DNA of 14,313 nucleotides from an uncultured archaeon (GTDB lineage Archaea > Asgardarchaeota > Lokiarchaeia > Sigyniarchaeales > SOKP01), in the NCBI GenBank assembly GCA_964388035.1, contig CAYLZE010000027.1, positions 1 through 14,313 of the forward strand. Direction: 5' to 3'. The translations under genes were made by a program, and so were the position numbers. The notes beneath the pieces are model-generated. The model was not told the origin of the DNA. It worked only from the letters and a program-made list of their open reading frames with translations, and did not search any database. Shown here one piece after another: positions 92 through 9,512 of the stretch (position 1 is the first letter of the stretch; each line of letters opens with the position of its first letter).

Positions 92-3000
92 TTAAGCATT
101 TACCGTTTCCTCTCCTAACATCTCATCGACATTTTCAAGATCAACGCTAAAAACATCCGTGATTCCACTTTGCTGCATGGACACCCCATAAATTCTGTCC
201 GCATTCACGATATTCTCTTCTCTGTGACTGATGACGATGAATTGTGATTGCTCTGCATACTCCTTTATGACCAGCGAGACCCTGTTGGCGTTCAAAGAAT
301 CGAGAGCTGCATCTATTTCATCTAAAACGAAGAACGGTGCCGGAAAGAACTCCTGGACGGCAAAGATGAACGAGAGAGCCACCAGCGTTTTTTCACCACC
401 ACTTAACATTTCAATCGAGCTGATAGGTTTTCCGTGAGGACGAGCATTAATACTTACGCCCCCTTCAAAGGGTGATTCGGGCCGATCTAATAACATTTTA
501 GCGGAACCGCCTGGAGATAATTTTTGAAAGGTATTAGAAAAAGCACGATTTATTTCATGGTATGCCTTCATGAACGTTTTTGTTTTTTCCAGCTCGATTT
601 TTTCAATAGCATCTAATATAGCTTTTCGCTCTCTTTGTATCGTTTGCCTACGCATGTCAATTTCATCGAATCGTTCTTTAGTCACATCATATTGTTCAAT
701 TGCTTTGAGATTAACGGGTTCAAGAGCTTTTTTCTTATTATTTGCATCAACAATCTGATTTTGTAGCATTGACTCTGTCAAATCTGCCGTAATTATTGGC
801 AGCGTTCCATATTCCTTGGAACGTTCATATAAAGTTTCTATTTGATCGACACAGATAATTTTTTTCGATTCATAGTTATTTAATTTAGAATTTTCCATGG
901 AATGAGAGGTTTTGAAATCGGAGACTTTTTCCTGGATCTGCTTTTGTTTCTCCCAAGATGCATCTTTTTGTGCCAATAAATCATCAATTTCTTTTTGTTT
1001 TTCTTCCTTTCGTCCGCTTTCAATTTGGAGGGAATCTTCAATGGTCTTTATTTGAATATTTAAATTATTTATTTTATTCTCAGTATTTGACTTTTCTTCA
1101 ATTAAGGAAAGGATGAGATTATCTCTTTCTTTATTTTTATTAAGCTCATTCAAATTATTCTGTAATTCTTGCAATTCTTTATTCAAATTGTTCAATTCTT
1201 TTTGAACCGATTTTTGCTTCTTTAATTCTTCTGCTTTTTCCGATCGCAATTCTTCTATCTTATTTTGAAAAGAGTCTACATCTATCTGGATTTTCTCAAT
1301 TTCAGAAGTTAATTTATCTATCACTTGCTTGCTATTCTCCATTTTTTGTTCTGCTTCAGAATTCTCTCTGGAAATCTCTTCAATTGAAGTGATTATCCTT
1401 TTGACATTTTCAAGGCCTCTCTTTCTATCCAAAACGTTTTCCAATAGTTCATTTTGATTATCAATTTTCTTATTTATATTCTCTGTCTTTTCCCAAAATC
1501 TATCTTTTTCTTTATTCAAATTATCAATTTCTTCTTGTATCTGTTTCTTCTGTTCATCAAGCTTTTCAATTTGCTTTTGTATATCATTGATTTTCTCCTT
1601 ATTCTCCTTAATTATACTTTCCAATTTTTGAATATTACCTTCAATTTCAGCAATATTTTCATATAACGTTTGAATTCCTTGCAAATCTTGTAATTTTTCT
1701 TGTATATCGTCAAAAATTTTCTGATTTTCCTCAATTGCTAATTGTAGTTGCGATAAATTATCCCAATAAGTGTTTTTTGCCTCATTTATGGTATTAATCT
1801 CACTTAATAACTTCTTAAGATCATCTTTTTGTGTAGTGAGTGATTGTACTCTCTCTTCGTTTTTATTCTCAATCTCGGTAATTTTTTCATTTAATTCAGA
1901 TATTCGTTGATTTGCATCATTTAATCTTAATTCTTTTGCTTTTAAATTTTCATTATCATGATCTTTATTTAATTGAGTTTCAGAAAGTTCTCTTTCCAAA
2001 GTGCTTAATTCTTTCTGTTGCGTATTAATGTTTTCAGAGATATCCTCTAATTGTTTATACAAATCTTGACTTTTTGATATAGTTAAGGTTTTTAGTGATA
2101 AATGAATATCTTGTAAGATTTCCATTAGATCTTGAACAAATGTATCAAAACTTGAAGTGGAATCTTGAACCGCAATATCTACAGATTCTCTTACTTTAAA
2201 AATCAACTGCTCTATGGAAGAATCTACGTTTTCAATGAACATATCCAAGGTTTGGCGTATAGAATTAATTACGGTTGACATTTCCTGTATTTTTTCCTCT
2301 TCACATTCTATTCCCTCCATAGTTTTCATGATATCAACGACATCAAGTACAAATTTTCTGAGATCCTCTCCCGCTGATCCAATTGCTTCCGAATTTGATT
2401 GTTGGATATTTCCTTTTATAGAATCTACGGAAATTTCTATGTTTTGCGTGAGCATGTTTAATATTTGTAGAATTGCTCTGATATCTTCCTTATTTTTTTC
2501 ATATTCTTCTTCGGATTTGTCAATTTTTATCATCATATTTTCCTTTTCCTGTAATAACTCAGCCAATCGCCTTTGAATATTATCCTTTTTAATATTAAAA
2601 TTTTCTACTTCATTGTCCATTTTATTGATTTTCTCTCTTAAATTGTTTATATTCAATTCTAATGTTTGCTTTTCTCGTTGTAATCCGGTTAATTCCTTTT
2701 TGAAAATATTCAATTCGATTTGAGAATTATCAATTTTACTTTGAATCGTATTAATTTCTGAATTAATTGAATTTTGCTTCAGTTTATATACTTCTAATTC
2801 TTTTTCATTAGTCCGAAAGTTTGACTCATTTTCTTTGGATCTTGCTTTAAGATCTTGGATCTTTTGAGATGATTCATTTTTTTTTTGGATTAATTCTTTA
2901 GCAATTGCCTCGGTATCTTTCCCCTTACTTATTTCTCTTATTCGATCTTCTAGTTTTCGTTTCTTGTTAGTTAAATCTTCTATATTATCGCTCTGTAACT

Positions 3001-4528
3001 TAATTTCGGTAGTATAAGACGTTAAAGTGGCTTGATTATTTGCCAATTGTGAATTTAATTGATTTTTCTCTTCTTGCTTTAAACTTCTCTCTTGCTCAAG
3101 ATCTTTTTGTCTTTCATTTTCGCCGGATATTTCTTGTTTTAGATTTTCTATTAAACTTCTGATTTGTTGCTCCTCGGCACTTGCTTTTTGTATTGCCTCT
3201 TCTATGTTTTCTGCATCTCCTTTCAATAAATTTAATTCTTTGTTCAATTTAATTCTCTTTTCTTCGTTCTTCTTAATGTTTTCCTGGAGAAGTTTTATTT
3301 GGGCTTGGTTTGAGGAAACATTTTGCTTCTTTATAGAAATTTCTGAATTTAACTTTCCTTTTTCTTCTTCTTGAATACCTATTTTTTTTTCCAGTTCAGA
3401 TTGAAGTTGTTGTCTACTATCTATCTCATTTTTTGCCTTTTCGATTTGATTTTCACAATTAGTTATTTGCTTTCTTTTAATTTCAATTAAAAGATCATAG
3501 GTTTGACCCTCTTCTAATTCCATTTGTTGCTTTACTAATTGCTCCTTATCTTGAATTATTTTATTAAGCGACTGTTCGGAAATATTTAATTCTGTTTTTG
3601 TAGAAGACAAATTCGTTTTCAAATTAGTTAAAGATTCGTTTATGGACTCTCTTTCTTTCTCTTTTTCAATTATCACTCTCTGAACATTTTCCATGACTAA
3701 AGATTCTTGTTTCAAGAGACCTTCTTCTCTTTTAATTTTCTCTTCTAATTCACCAACAAATCTTTTGGTTTTTTCGATATTTTTCTCCAGCTCTTTTTCT
3801 TCTTCTTGTAATTCAGATATTTTTAAAGCAATTAATTGAGCATTAAATAAATTAATCTTTTCTTCTAACTCTTTCCAAGCTAATGCATCATTTTTCTCCT
3901 TTTCAACCTTTTTCAATTGTGAGGAAACTTCCTTGAAAATGGCTTCAAATTGTCCCAAATCTCTTTCTGCTTTTTCTAATTCCTTAAAGGTAACATCTTT
4001 CATCTCATCGTATTTTTCTAATCCGATAAGTTCTTCAATAAATTTGCGCCTATCATTACTGTCCATGTGGGTTAATTCCACTATTTTTCCTTGTAGAATA
4101 AATTGGTTTGAACCGTCAGGATCAATATTTCCCATTGCTAATGCATTTAATATTTGCTGACGTGTCGTAATTTTCCCATTCATTTTATACTTTCCAATGC
4201 CTCCTTTTTTGATTACCCTCGTAATCTCAAAAGTCTCAGTACCCCCGGGAAATATTCCCTCCGAATTATCAAAGGTTATCGTGACTGCGGCTCTTTTTGC
4301 GGGGTTCTTACCCGTTGATCCCGCAAAGATCAAATCTTCTAAACTTTTAGCTCTCATCGTTTTTTTGCTTAGCCTTCCTAATGCAAAACATAAAGCATCA
4401 ATAATATTTGACTTCCCTGCGCCGTTAGGGCCCACCACGCACGTAAACCCGCGTGAGAAATTGACGGTAACTGTTCGATCACCGAAAGATTTAAAACCGC
4501 TCATGGAAATCTTTTTTATAAAGGTCAA
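92..4528 (-). CDS. smc: SMC-family chromosome segregation ATPase (condensin-type head) with extended arms and a non-canonical hinge
   Basis: Head motifs: N-terminal GFKSF, Walker A GPNGAGKS, R-finger region MRAKSL, Q-loop ILQG, PVNLKAIEQY, signature LSGGEK, Walker B/D-loop VLDEIDAALD and H-loop ISH. About 1000 aa of heptad-rich coiled coil lies between the head halves. TTG start with AGGAG 7 nt upstream. Confidence 0.95.
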   Translation of the reverse strand: MTFIKKISMSGFKSFGDRTVTVNFSRGFTCVVGPNGAGKSNIIDALCFALGRLSKKTMRAKSLEDLIFAGSTGKNPAKRAAVTITFDNSEGIFPGGTETFEITRVIKKGGIGKYKMNGKITTRQQILNALAMGNIDPDGSNQFILQGKIVELTHMDSNDRRKFIEELIGLEKYDEMKDVTFKELEKAERDLGQFEAIFKEVSSQLKKVEKEKNDALAWKELEEKINLFNAQLIALKISELQEEEKELEKNIEKTKRFVGELEEKIKREEGLLKQESLVMENVQRVIIEKEKERESINESLTNLKTNLSSTKTELNISEQSLNKIIQDKEQLVKQQMELEEGQTYDLLIEIKRKQITNCENQIEKAKNEIDSRQQLQSELEKKIGIQEEEKGKLNSEISIKKQNVSSNQAQIKLLQENIKKNEEKRIKLNKELNLLKGDAENIEEAIQKASAEEQQIRSLIENLKQEISGENERQKDLEQERSLKQEEKNQLNSQLANNQATLTSYTTEIKLQSDNIEDLTNKKRKLEDRIREISKGKDTEAIAKELIQKKNESSQKIQDLKARSKENESNFRTNEKELEVYKLKQNSINSEINTIQSKIDNSQIELNIFKKELTGLQREKQTLELNINNLREKINKMDNEVENFNIKKDNIQRRLAELLQEKENMMIKIDKSEEEYEKNKEDIRAILQILNMLTQNIEISVDSIKGNIQQSNSEAIGSAGEDLRKFVLDVVDIMKTMEGIECEEEKIQEMSTVINSIRQTLDMFIENVDSSIEQLIFKVRESVDIAVQDSTSSFDTFVQDLMEILQDIHLSLKTLTISKSQDLYKQLEDISENINTQQKELSTLERELSETQLNKDHDNENLKAKELRLNDANQRISELNEKITEIENKNEERVQSLTTQKDDLKKLLSEINTINEAKNTYWDNLSQLQLAIEENQKIFDDIQEKLQDLQGIQTLYENIAEIEGNIQKLESIIKENKEKINDIQKQIEKLDEQKKQIQEEIDNLNKEKDRFWEKTENINKKIDNQNELLENVLDRKRGLENVKRIITSIEEISRENSEAEQKMENSKQVIDKLTSEIEKIQIDVDSFQNKIEELRSEKAEELKKQKSVQKELNNLNKELQELQNNLNELNKNKERDNLILSLIEEKSNTENKINNLNIQIKTIEDSLQIESGRKEEKQKEIDDLLAQKDASWEKQKQIQEKVSDFKTSHSMENSKLNNYESKKIICVDQIETLYERSKEYGTLPIITADLTESMLQNQIVDANNKKKALEPVNLKAIEQYDVTKERFDEIDMRRQTIQRERKAILDAIEKIELEKTKTFMKAYHEINRAFSNTFQKLSPGGSAKMLLDRPESPFEGGVSINARPHGKPISSIEMLSGGEKTLVALSFIFAVQEFFPAPFFVLDEIDAALDSLNANRVSLVIKEYAEQSQFIVISHREENIVNADRIYGVSMQQSGITDVFSVDLENVDEMLGEETVNA
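2105..2482 (-). repeat. Protein-level tandem repeat (2 x ~55 aa, period 71 aa) at the SMC apex
   Basis: aa 683-737 and aa 754-808 align without gaps, sharing I..I.Q.L.M...N...S..........S...A..........FV.D...I. Confidence 0.75.
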
Positions 4529-4675: not shown

Positions 4676-5875
4676 TTAAACTGGTGAATTAGAAAATATA
4701 GTATCGACCATTATTTTTAAGCGATTTGGACTGATTCCCATGAAGTAATTATTTAAATCAGGATTTTTCTCTGAAGAATAACCATGAACATGGTGAAGTT
4801 TTCTTGCTTTACTTAGAATCCCGATTCCATTAATCATCTCAAGCATGCCATTAAATTCTGATCTATCTTTTTCGTAGATTAGAGATTCACAAGAAAGTTC
4901 ATATAATTCATAGAGGTCTTTTAACTTAATATAAAATTTGGTTGAATTGGTTAGAAAATAATTGGCTAAGTTGTCTAAGAAAATTATGGTTAATATGTTC
5001 TCTTCAGAAAGATAATTAACCATGTTGAACTCATCCGTCATGCCTAGCGTTTCAAAATTGTTTTGACAAATCTCTAATATTTCCGTTTGCCCCAAGACAT
5101 CACTCTTTTGAAGGAATGGATAAAGATCTCGTAGAATTTCTATACCTTTACCCGGAACCGGTACATGATGCTCGAAGATTAAATCCACGATATATTGTAT
5201 TAATTCATCATCAATTTCATGAGAAAAAACAAGGGAAATTCTCTGCTGAAGGATTTGGTATAATTGATTGAAGGTATAATAGTTTAATTTATTTTTAAAG
5301 TCAAATTTGGAGAATACTTCAAGAGTTGAAGGATTCAAAACCTTATTTAAGGTATAAATAGAAGTGATATTTACATCCTTACCCAAAAAAAGCAACTTGT
5401 TTAAAAATCTGGGTTCTAAATATTCTGCATTATTAAAGACTAAGAGGTATTCATTTTTTAGTTTTCCATAAATTAATTTGAGTAAATTCCAAAGGTAAGA
5501 GATTTTTGAATTAAGAATTAAACTTAAATCTATATTTAGATTAAGAACTTCTTTTGTTTGAGAGATTAATGTAAATAAGAGTTCATCCACTTTTTTTTCC
5601 TTACAATCTATATTAATTTTTTTTAGTGCTTTAAAATCTTGATTTTGATTTATTAAATCATTTAAAACTTTATTTACTATTGCTTTTTTACCAATTCCTT
5701 GGGTTCCTTGAACCATGATATTTAAACTAAAATTATCCACTATGGAATCATTTAATAATGAGAGAAGGGTATTTTCTTCTTTTTTCCTAAATAAAAGCTT
5801 TGGCGGGAGAAAATTCTCGTCAAATATGGCTTTTGCCCCTACAAAATTAGATTTTTGGATTGTTTTTGCTATCAT
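4676..5875 (-). CDS. Cdc6/Orc1-like AAA+ and winged-helix protein with degenerate ATPase motifs
   Basis: N-terminal FDENFLPPKLLFRKKE matches the Cdc6 'F..ny.P..L.hRe.e' pattern. It also has P-loop GTQGIGKK, INIDC, Walker B-like LLVFNNAEYL, YTFNQLYQILQQR (Cdc6 'Y..eql..IL..R') and a C-terminal WH-like segment (LKDLYELY...LEMINGIGIL). The length of 399 aa is typical. Confidence 0.82.
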   Translation of the reverse strand: MIAKTIQKSNFVGAKAIFDENFLPPKLLFRKKEENTLLSLLNDSIVDNFSLNIMVQGTQGIGKKAIVNKVLNDLINQNQDFKALKKINIDCKEKKVDELLFTLISQTKEVLNLNIDLSLILNSKISYLWNLLKLIYGKLKNEYLLVFNNAEYLEPRFLNKLLFLGKDVNITSIYTLNKVLNPSTLEVFSKFDFKNKLNYYTFNQLYQILQQRISLVFSHEIDDELIQYIVDLIFEHHVPVPGKGIEILRDLYPFLQKSDVLGQTEILEICQNNFETLGMTDEFNMVNYLSEENILTIIFLDNLANYFLTNSTKFYIKLKDLYELYELSCESLIYEKDRSEFNGMLEMINGIGILSKARKLHHVHGYSSEKNPDLNNYFMGISPNRLKIMVDTIFSNSPV

Positions 5876-7974: not shown

Positions 7975-9147
7975 TTGAAAACTATTGTTGCATTGTCATA
8001 TTTTCATAAAAAAATAGGCCCATTAAACGCTTTTTCTTATCCGGAATCTCTATTAGATGAACAATTATCCGTGAGAATTGCTAATATAATGGATCAAATC
8101 ATGGAAGAGGGATTTTTTACTCATTCTTTCGAAAATTTTCATTCCATGAATTATTATTTTGAAATTCATTCTGATTGGGCACGTGGAAATCGAGAAATGT
8201 TAATGCTCTCAATCATTTTTGATCATAAAACCACCCCGGAAGTGGAATCGAAGGTATTAAATTTATGCAATGAGTTTTCTAAAATGATTCAAGCTAATGA
8301 AGAAATATTTACTGCTTTTCATATTAACGAATTAGATTATTATGATGAGGAGGATAAAAATTTAATTATAAAGAATCATCTTTTAATGAAAGATCTAATT
8401 AGGGATTTATATCGGTCGACTATCGAAGAGACAAGAGAAAAAAGTGAAGAAGAAATTATCGCTTCTCTATTAAATAAAAAACACATATTTCTAACATTGA
8501 AAAAACTATCAAAAGGACCTACAACTCTTGAGGATTTAGAAGAATGGTTCATGGAACGCTTTCCAGAAAAGGATTTCCAAGAACTTATTAATAAATTGGT
8601 TAATAAACAGTTTATCTTCATCAATCAAATTGGTAGAATTGAAAAATACGTGCTATTATTAAAAGAGGTAAATGCCGAAAGAATACCCCCCTTCAGCGTT
8701 ATAGAGTATATAGATGAAACTCCTGAATTAATCGATTTAATTCTTCCAGAAGTGAAAGAGTATTTTAGTGATTATGAAGCGAAAACTAAAGAAGAAATTA
8801 TAGAAGATGCTTTCGTATTGTTTCAGATAATGGCAGATCCCAAAAAATATAATGTATTGTCAGAATTACGGGATAGGTTAATTCCAAGTAAAAAATTACC
8901 CGAGCTTGTATCTAAAAAAACGTTAGTATCGCTAAATGAAATATTAGACTTTTTAAAAGCTAAAGATGTGATAGATGAATTGCAGCATGAAGGGGAACAA
9001 TATGTATTTCTCAAAACGAACATTCAAATTTCTACGAGTTTTCCTCAATACTTACGAAAACTCTTACCTAAGGAAACAAAACCCGTAATAGCCGATAAAT
9101 ACAAACCAATGAATGATAATATTAATGCGAATAATAATATGGAGTAA
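7975..9147 (+). CDS. Longin/uDENN (folliculin/SMCR8/NPRL2-like) domain protein with two C-terminal winged-helix-like repeats
   Basis: N-terminus IVALSYFHKKIGP matches the F-x4-GP first hairpin of uDENN/longin domains. YFEIHSDWARGNREML resembles the ARG loop of FLCN/SMCR8. The C-terminal half has two similar helix-helix-helix-hairpin units. TTG start with AGGGAG SD at 7961-7966. Confidence 0.72.
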   Translation: MKTIVALSYFHKKIGPLNAFSYPESLLDEQLSVRIANIMDQIMEEGFFTHSFENFHSMNYYFEIHSDWARGNREMLMLSIIFDHKTTPEVESKVLNLCNEFSKMIQANEEIFTAFHINELDYYDEEDKNLIIKNHLLMKDLIRDLYRSTIEETREKSEEEIIASLLNKKHIFLTLKKLSKGPTTLEDLEEWFMERFPEKDFQELINKLVNKQFIFINQIGRIEKYVLLLKEVNAERIPPFSVIEYIDETPELIDLILPEVKEYFSDYEAKTKEEIIEDAFVLFQIMADPKKYNVLSELRDRLIPSKKLPELVSKKTLVSLNEILDFLKAKDVIDELQHEGEQYVFLKTNIQISTSFPQYLRKLLPKETKPVIADKYKPMNDNINANNNME

Positions 9148-9233: not shown

Positions 9234-9512
9234 ATGTCTTCCGAAGAAAACAATTCTTTTGAACACTTGAAATATCTTCTGGGAAATATTGGGATAGAAA
9301 TTTTGGTCTCTATCAATAAGGGTGCAAAAACCCCCAAAATTATAAAATTATTTAGCGGAGTGTCATATAATTGCATTTTGGGGCGGTTGCCCGTATTAAT
9401 CGATTTAGATCTCATCACAAAAGAAGATGATGATTATATTCTAACTCTAAAAGGCATTCAATTTCTTTCATTTTTAAAAAAGGAATGGAATCAATTTAAT
9501 CGCGAACACTAA
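9234..9512 (+). CDS. Small winged helix-turn-helix protein (putative regulator)
   Basis: 92 aa with the wHTH pattern EILVSI...RLPVLIDLDLI...YILTLKG, including the typical Y-x-LT-x-KG wing signature. Confidence 0.8.
   Translation: MSSEENNSFEHLKYLLGNIGIEILVSINKGAKTPKIIKLFSGVSYNCILGRLPVLIDLDLITKEDDDYILTLKGIQFLSFLKKEWNQFNREH

Follow-up and report, generated by a model that had tools for sequence, protein, structure and literature searches.

The stretch of DNA analysed here, referred to as the window, comprises 14,313 nucleotides from an uncultured Asgard archaeon of the order Sigyniarchaeales (Lokiarchaeia, SOKP01; positions 1 to 14,313 of contig CAYLZE010000027.1, GenBank assembly GCA_964388035.1). 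Its longest open reading frame, on the reverse strand, encodes a long-armed Smc protein of 1478 aa in which no hinge was detected and in which both strands of the coiled-coil arm carry repeated modules, about 97.5 aa long on the ascending (N) strand and 90 aa long on the descending (C) strand. The codon of residue i occupies window positions 4526-3(i-1) to 4528-3(i-1), and the features of the gene are collected in Table 1. Literature searches turned up no account of an Asgard Smc that has modular arms and lacks a hinge.

A Pfam scan of the 1478-aa protein returned PF02463 (145 bits) together with generic P-loop models, and nothing else. When both head halves were searched against PDB sequences, they matched the head of Pyrococcus Smc (5xei) at E = 2e-115, as well as 5xns and 4i99; the best Rad50 match had an E value of about 1e-07 (7e-08). 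The head motifs are intact in the translation, namely the Walker A motif (GPNGAGKS), the Q-loop (QFILQGK), the signature motif (LSGGEK), the Walker B motif and D-loop (FFVLDEIDAALD) and the H-loop (ISHR). In its ATPase heads the protein is an ordinary archaeal Smc, and the heptad breaks in the joint region fall at the same places as those of a canonical Smc control (217 and 232). Against TIGR02169, the NCBIfam equivalog model of archaeal Smc, the protein scored 579 bits and did not reach the cut-off of 729.4 bits; the canonical paralogue P0123 scored 835 bits. The TTG start supplies the first strand of a canonical Smc (TFIKKISMSGFKSF, window 4505..4528). Approximately 38% of the database homologues are annotated from an internal Met located eight residues downstream of this TTG, which is probably a mis-called start.

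Table 1. Features of the hinge-less smc gene in the window (aa, residues of the encoded protein; AF2, AlphaFold2; pLDDT, predicted local distance difference test)
Feature	Window position	Strand	Evidence
Hinge-less long-armed Smc paralogue, whole gene, 1478 aa, TTG start	92..4528	-	longest open reading frame of the window; PF02463, TIGR02169 and 5xei matches
ATPase head, N-terminal half, aa 1-167, Walker A GPNGAGKS and Q-loop	4028..4528	-	conservation 0.8-0.98; PDB head matches
Head-proximal N-strand coiled coil and joint region, aa 168-244, invariant W218, heptad breaks 218 and 237	3797..4027	-	register trace
N-strand module 1, aa 245-341, ends in G341 loop	3506..3796	-	lag-97 diagonal; unit z-scores; AF2 loop 335-343
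N-strand module 2, aa 342-439, ends in G437 loop	3212..3505	-	lag-98 diagonal; unit pair 2-3 z=5.4; AF2 loop 437-441
N-strand module 3, aa 440-536, ends in G536 loop	2921..3211	-	diagonals; unit z-scores; AF2 loop 535-538
N-strand module 4, aa 537-634	2627..2920	-	lag-97 diagonal 445-535 vs 542-632; unit pair 3-4 z=4.1
Apex, aa 676-832, two long helices (predicted) and variable loop aa 739-743 (window 2300-2314)	2033..2503	-	conservation 0.92-0.94; AF2 hairpin pLDDT 80
C-strand module 1, aa 862-951, W922, heptad skip 951/952	1676..1945	-	register trace, lags, diagonals, unit z; AF2 kink 951
C-strand module 2, aa 952-1041, W1012, heptad skip 1041/1042	1406..1675	-	register trace, lags, diagonals, unit z; AF2 kink 1041
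C-strand module 3, aa 1042-1131, L1102 at Trp position, heptad skip near 1132-1136	1136..1405	-	conservation, register trace, diagonals, unit z
C-strand module 4, aa 1132-1221, W1192	866..1135	-	unit pair 3-4 z=4.4; lag-90 diagonal positive to ~1130 plus 90
ATPase head, C-terminal half, aa 1265-1478 and stop, LSGGEK, Walker B FFVLDEID, H-loop ISHR	92..736	-	5xei, 5xns and 4i99 matches

The hinge model PF06470 gave no match at E<=1 in the 1478-aa protein, and the same Pfam model finds hinges elsewhere in the genome. Residues 660-860 matched neither a hinge nor a zinc hook among PDB sequences. Searches of the apex against PDB sequences, the ESM Atlas and PDB folds yielded nothing beyond generic helical hairpins, namely fragments of Smc coiled coils and hairpins of chemoreceptors, the best with E 0.15. 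Apart from the heads, no part of the protein is as well conserved as the apex, which also contains a duplication within itself (lag 71, z=5.5). Its loop (GIECEEEK) contains one Cys and is variable, with indels, across 45 homologues, and the CxxC zinc hook of Rad50/SbcC is not conserved at the apex in the alignment of these 45 proteins. The hinge is replaced by a conserved, internally duplicated apex that is predicted to form a two-helix hairpin. A predicted complex of two apex copies (residues 640-880) gave ipSAE values of 0.08 and 0.04 against a mark of 0.42, a result that weighs neither way on dimerisation.

Two observations on hinges and apices elsewhere are recorded here. A stand-alone protein of 233 aa, P0124 (G000 contig C96; L009 1423..2124, reverse strand), comprises an SMC hinge (PF06470, 99 bits) preceded by about 50 aa of coil, and shares 43% identity with a canonical Asgard Smc over residues 469-665 of the latter. 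Its hinge is the sole strong hinge in this genome and the sole hinge in so short a frame in the 151 Asgard genomes sampled; P0124 may be what is left of a canonical smc that has been lost, or a hinge protein in its own right. In addition, a copy of the apex module lies near the N terminus of members of a non-SMC family of about 920-1180 aa (profile E 1e-11 to 1e-25), represented by the protein of L018 678..3755 (reverse strand; G089 contig C26) and by P0143, P0145, P0146, P0150, P0152, P0155 and P0156. By eye, the L018 protein apparently contains several copies of the apex motif, and it ends in a lysine-rich, histone-H1-like tail.

The same 151 genomes served as a sample of the phylum in a search for the apex. 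It was present in 23 of the 25 genomes of the family to which the window belongs and in both genomes sampled from another family of the order; the sole other match was marginal (E 5.5e-4, in a 1145-aa frame from a further family). In a tree of head domains the hinge-less proteins formed one clade (support 100) among the canonical Smc proteins of Asgard archaea, without assignment of an exact sister group. Three genera have, in addition to the hinge-less protein, a canonical Smc with a hinge (1196-1205 aa); none was found in the remaining genera, this genome included. The hinge-less Smc is a paralogue of canonical Smc found in one Asgard order among the genomes sampled. Neither the lack of a hinge nor the status of a lineage-specific paralogue had been part of an earlier reading of the window, made from its letters and translations (the sequence-only reading).

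Directly downstream of the hinge-less smc in three related genomes (G138, G147 and G089) lie a kleisin-like gene, identified through weak ScpA and Rad21_Rec8 matches, and scpB (PF04079, 1e-34). Genomes with both Smc types carry two ScpB genes, one adjoining each Smc, so that the genera that keep canonical Smc have two complete condensin-type sets in addition to an SMC5/6-like protein. The ScpB beside the canonical smc is the shorter one, encoded by a 191-199-aa frame and scoring 62-75 bits (G138 C139, G147 C10 and G089 C3; L022, L021 and L024). Judged from gene adjacency, the kleisin-like protein and ScpB are putative partners of the hinge-less Smc. The sole ScpB of the window's genome is found on contig C39 with an orthologue of the kleisin (65% identical to that of G138). 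There the two genes (L044 and L045) follow a gene for a small Ras/Arf-like GTPase and not smc, unlike the arrangement in G138, G147 and G089. The hinge-less smc ends 91 bp from the start of its contig (window 1..92), and the separate location of kleisin and scpB reflects either a rearrangement or an assembly break. The N terminus of the kleisin-like partner (L044 2210..3316, reverse strand, G000 C39; L040 4590..5594, reverse strand) carries a DNA-binding module of the SAP/HeH/Ish1-like or helix-hairpin-helix kind; ordinary ScpA has no such module.

The lack of a hinge, the score below the TIGR02169 equivalog cut-off and weak matches to Rad50, SbcC and ASRP models would also fit a Rad50/SbcC-like or other SMC-like repair ATPase, whose arm modules would have no relation to the tuning of Smc arms. 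We consider this identity very unlikely. The heads are far closer to Pyrococcus Smc (2e-115) than to Rad50 (7e-08), the head tree nests the clade among Asgard canonical Smc, the apex has no conserved CxxC, and the genes downstream in relatives encode a kleisin-like protein and ScpB, not Mre11. No Mre11/SbcD nuclease gene was present among the neighbours of smc in the window, which include a 399-aa open reading frame, a CN hydrolase and a HAD hydrolase, among others.

The sequence-only reading had proposed matched modules on the two arm strands, based on the residues W922, W1012 and W1192, with L1102 in the gap of the series, and on N-strand motifs spaced at 97/98/97 aa with Gly breaks at G341, G437 and G536. 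All of these residues and coordinates were correct in the translation. The Trp codons of the C strand lie at 1763-1765 (W922), 1493-1495 (W1012) and 953-955 (W1192), and EKAEELKK spans aa 1097-1104, so that L1102 occupies the gap in the 90-aa Trp series. On the N strand, the motifs begin at 294 (ESINES), 391 (GKLNSE), 489 (NQLNSQ) and 586 (NSINSE). The protein has four Trp residues, all of which are invariant in 120 homologues (58-74% identity); Gly is conserved among the same homologues in 99/120 at G341, 69/120 at G437 and 118/120 at G536.

The repeat was assessed by autocorrelation. With a composition-only null, lag 90 was highest in the C arm and lag 195 in the N arm, and the strong lags were all of the form 90+7k or 180+7k. 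This pattern identified heptad phase as a confound, and a register-keeping shuffle was therefore used instead: the heptad register was traced on the hydrophobicity profile of the family, and profile columns were shuffled within register classes while the trace and its breaks were kept. Over 220 lags (lags 30-250), the maximum of a single shuffle had a 99th percentile of approximately 4.0 and reached at most 4.5 in 400 shuffles. In the C arm just two lags stood out from this null, 90 with z 6.05 and 180 with z 4.47; in the N arm, lags 97, 98 and 195 did so (z 4.0-4.1). In a check set beforehand, the repeats proposed by the sequence-only reading thus held against heptad-preserving shuffles. The C-arm lags 83, 97, 104 and 111 dropped to |z|<2 once the register trace was fixed. 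In single sequences from four lineages, lag 90 ranked first or second in the C arm (P0001, z 3.96; P0122, 3.16; P0144, 3.74; P0163, 4.66). The identical pipeline detected no repeat in canonical Asgard Smc arms (maximum z 2.4-2.8 for a 21-sequence profile and for single sequences, with 2.5 for the profile).

By sliding diagonals the repeats span 865-1220 on the C strand (4 x 90) and 250-640 on the N strand (4 x ~97.5), in agreement with the four matched modules proposed for each strand. The N-strand lag alternates between 97 and 98 and changes at the three glycines. All 12 unit pairs were positive relative to the null (z 1.3-5.4), and similarity between units covers 20 of 90 columns on the C strand and 28 of 97 on the N strand, extending beyond the Trp motif. 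An artefact of heptad phase and of the biased E/K/N/I/L/Q composition, with the Trp spacing due to chance, would account for the strong heptad-phase component seen under the composition-only null. It would not explain why the lags that remain under a fixed register are confined to 90 and 180 in the C arm and to 97, 98 and 195 in the N arm, why 0/400 shuffles reach z 6, or why the repeat is replicated in four lineages and absent from the canonical controls. We regard such an artefact as extremely improbable.

Breaks in the coiled coil coincide with the module boundaries. The register trace placed one-residue skips at 952, 1042 and ~1136 on the C strand and at 342 and 537 on the N strand; with one such skip per unit, the 90-aa unit of the C strand equals 13 heptads minus one residue. 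In P0122, a 40%-identical orthologue from another family of the order, breaks occur at or near the same sites. An AF2 model of the arm (residues 165-1265, 45-sequence alignment, pLDDT 76.5) was helical throughout except for a few loops and kinks, with helices running from 168 to 738 and from 747 to 1240. On the N strand the helix is interrupted by loops at G341, G437 and G536 that are modelled with 9, 5 and 4 residues (335-343, 437-441 and 535-538), in agreement with the proposal that the surplus N residues form regularly spaced joints. On the C strand the model contains single-residue kinks at 951 and 1041, along with a minor break at 817-818 inside the apex and the apex loop itself at 739-746. 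Measured from the apex loop (residue 741), the distance is 403, 303 and 205 residues to the N loops and about 392, 299 and 209 to the C breaks. From these near-equal distances we infer that each N-strand Gly loop faces a heptad skip on the C strand.

Between conserved anchors, the N strand extends over residues 173-738 (566 aa) and the C strand over 744-1269 (525 aa). The descending helix of ~497 residues corresponds to ~74 nm at ~0.15 nm per residue, and the earlier estimate of ~510 aa per strand and ~75 nm was roughly right. The corresponding strands of the canonical paralogue P0123 measure 333 (N) and 317 (C) aa, making the modular arms approximately 1.6 times longer. We also attempted to map the modules onto canonical arms by hhalign against 21 canonical Asgard Smc proteins; this gave a forced global alignment, with generic N-arm/C-arm coiled-coil matches as the alternatives, and was set aside.

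A search of the apex profile against 1.8 billion cluster representatives gave 39 matches. The hinge-less orthologues fall into two length classes, full-length four-module proteins of 1464-1497 aa and two proteins of 1293 and 1296 aa. P0144 (1296 aa, labelled Ca. Sigynarchaeota) has its apex 93 residues earlier, and P0163 (1293 aa) was found in the cluster of a fragment. The two form a clade (support 99) that is sister to the four-module clade (95) within the hinge-less clade (100); the labels of this sister clade in the sources are Sigynarchaeota and Promethearchaeota. When one gap per strand was fitted, the N-strand gap was 96 aa with a sharp optimum after G437, so that residues 438-533 of P0001 are missing, Gly to Gly, and the best C-strand gap was 90 aa. 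N-strand module 3 is the module without a counterpart in these proteins. They have two breaks per strand, not three, and their top lags are again 97 and 90. Orthologue lengths are thus clustered rather than continuous, as anticipated by the sequence-only reading, and the two classes differ by 96 aa (N) plus 90 aa (C). The further proposal of that reading, that both strands were duplicated in a coordinated way in steps of ~91 aa, is supported by the matched modules and by the 96/90-aa class difference; the surplus over canonical arms, ~2.3-2.4 modules per strand, does not amount to a whole number of steps.

The module lengths are close to a period reported for bacterial Smc. Burmann et al. 2017 (Mol Cell 65:861, PMC5344682) found that the viability of Bacillus subtilis strains with resized Smc arms follows a 91-aa period, which is the arm-length step that the sequence-only reading had cited. 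The same study gave a superhelical period of the arm of ~99 aa, described natural arm lengths as multimodal (238, 341 and 515 aa), and showed that B. subtilis Smc stays functional when its hinge is swapped for a Rad50 zinc hook. The protein set of that study was seeded on hinges and so could not include a hinge-less family. Diebold-Durand et al. 2017 (PMC5526789) described the Smc joint and rod contacts that are periodic with the pitch of the coiled coil.

These periods allow an explanation of the repeat without duplication, in which similar residues, such as Trp and those of the rod contact faces, were selected convergently at each superhelical turn. In favour of convergence, the repeat has the same period as the function and the superhelix of the Smc arm (PMC5344682), rod contacts repeat at the coiled-coil pitch (PMC5526789), the invariant Trp residues occupy the same position in their units, and the units are only 14-20% identical. 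However, the similarity is diffuse, covering about a quarter of the unit columns rather than one motif; canonical Smc arms, which are under an equal superhelical constraint, have no repeat; and the sister clade differs by whole modules, one N unit of 96 aa bounded by Gly at both ends and one C unit of 90 aa. Convergence is in our view unlikely, if the most serious of the alternatives.

We consider it probable that the protein is a condensin-type, hinge-less Smc with matched, duplicated arm modules, each about one superhelical turn in length. Its arm would be a chain of ~13-nm coiled-coil segments with regularly spaced joints, ~74 nm in total, in which N-strand loops of 4-9 residues at Gly would absorb the surplus over the C strand. 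The modules would have arisen by duplication, and we propose that, since a hairpin with mismatched strands cannot zip, fixation of an N copy went along with fixation of its C counterpart. As a module would approximate one superhelical turn of the coiled coil, the gain or loss of a module pair would alter the reach of the arm and keep the rotational phase of the heads versus the apex, the constraint indicated by the 91-aa period of PMC5344682. The conserved apex would serve as a putative dimeriser that replaces the hinge.

Several observations weigh against this proposal. The ungapped identity between units (14-20%) is low, so that common descent of the modules rests on statistics and is invisible by eye. 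The pairing of the N and C strands comes from residue counts from the apex, not from model coordinates; the AF2 model is unbroken at ~1134, the third C boundary, and at G437 the register trace shows no N-strand break. Relative to canonical arms the surplus is 233 aa (N) and 208 aa (C), ~2.3-2.4 modules, and this non-integer value leaves a simple 'canonical arm plus n modules' unsupported as stated. In the three-module proteins the C-strand gap is poorly localised, with an optimum at 883-972, ~70 aa to the apex side of the module presumed to pair with N module 3. The two indels sit ~1.3-1.6 kb apart in the gene; to our knowledge, no single genetic event adds a unit on both strands, and intermediates with mismatched strands would probably be unfit.

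A more tentative extension, toward which we lean less than even, is that the paired module (96-98 aa up, 90 aa down, with a Gly loop facing a skip) may be a natural quantum of arm length, one superhelical turn, which evolution gains or loses as a unit, and that the joints may act as functional hinges within the arm, for bending or folding.

The protein shares with canonical Smc-ScpAB of Pyrococcus and B. subtilis (TIGR02169/TIGR02168; PF02463 plus PF06470) the ABC-ATPase head motifs, the joint, the antiparallel arm and an adjacent kleisin and ScpB. It differs from canonical Smc in lacking a hinge, in its four detectable modules per strand, in the regular breaks and in its TIGR02169 score under the cut-off. 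The B. subtilis arm work (PMC5344682) is similar in that a step of ~91 aa sets the working arm lengths and an unrelated dimeriser can replace the hinge; in that study, however, the period came from engineered truncations and length histograms, whereas in the Asgard family it is present in sequence repeats and in a natural three-/four-module pair. Hinge-less SMC proteins from ocean metagenomes (Environ Microbiome 2025, PMC12153180) likewise combine SMC-type heads with a coiled coil that has neither a hinge nor a CxxC hook. Those variants belong to Actinobacteria-like marine bacteria, with partner genes and arm modularity undescribed, whereas the present family is archaeal and coexists with canonical Smc in some genera. 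Finally, the rods of tropomyosin and myosin also have a coiled-coil period longer than the heptad and tolerate only whole-period deletions. These rods are parallel dimers matched to an external lattice (actin or the thick filament); the Asgard arm, in contrast, is an intramolecular antiparallel hairpin with unequal unit lengths on its two strands and no known external periodic partner.

Other genes were noted in the window. Directly upstream of smc, the 399-aa open reading frame (4676..5875, reverse strand) contains a P-loop-like GTQGIGKK and has a weak Septin match (E 0.003). A 390-aa open reading frame without a Pfam match (7975..9147, forward strand) is followed by a gene for a 92-aa winged-helix (HTH_45) protein (9234..9512, forward strand). 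A ribosomal protein L15e-like gene, read from the translation, is also located on the contig; this gene and the names that homologues bear in the sources (Promethearchaeota, Lokiarchaeia) assign the contig to a Loki-type Asgard archaeon.

Chromosome folding by SMC motors is common to all domains of life, and Asgard archaea are the closest known relatives of eukaryotes. Studies of Asgard SMC proteins have recognised two types, condensin/cohesin-like and SMC5/6-like, and the hinge-less family makes a third. Arm length in this family changes by whole steps near the period tolerated in engineered Bacillus Smc. A Bacillus-type arm period that is visible as sequence repeats in a natural Smc, together with a difference of one module pair between clades, provides comparative support for the idea of a tuned arm. 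The natural hinge-less proteins with three modules (MDO8116617.1 type) and four modules are usable for electron microscopy, cross-linking and loop-extrusion assays, and they touch on how arms transmit the movements of the ATPase and on the purpose of the hinge. If the module is indeed a quantum of arm length and the joints are hinges, the family would offer a natural series on the roles of arm length, phase and hinge in DNA loading and loop extrusion.

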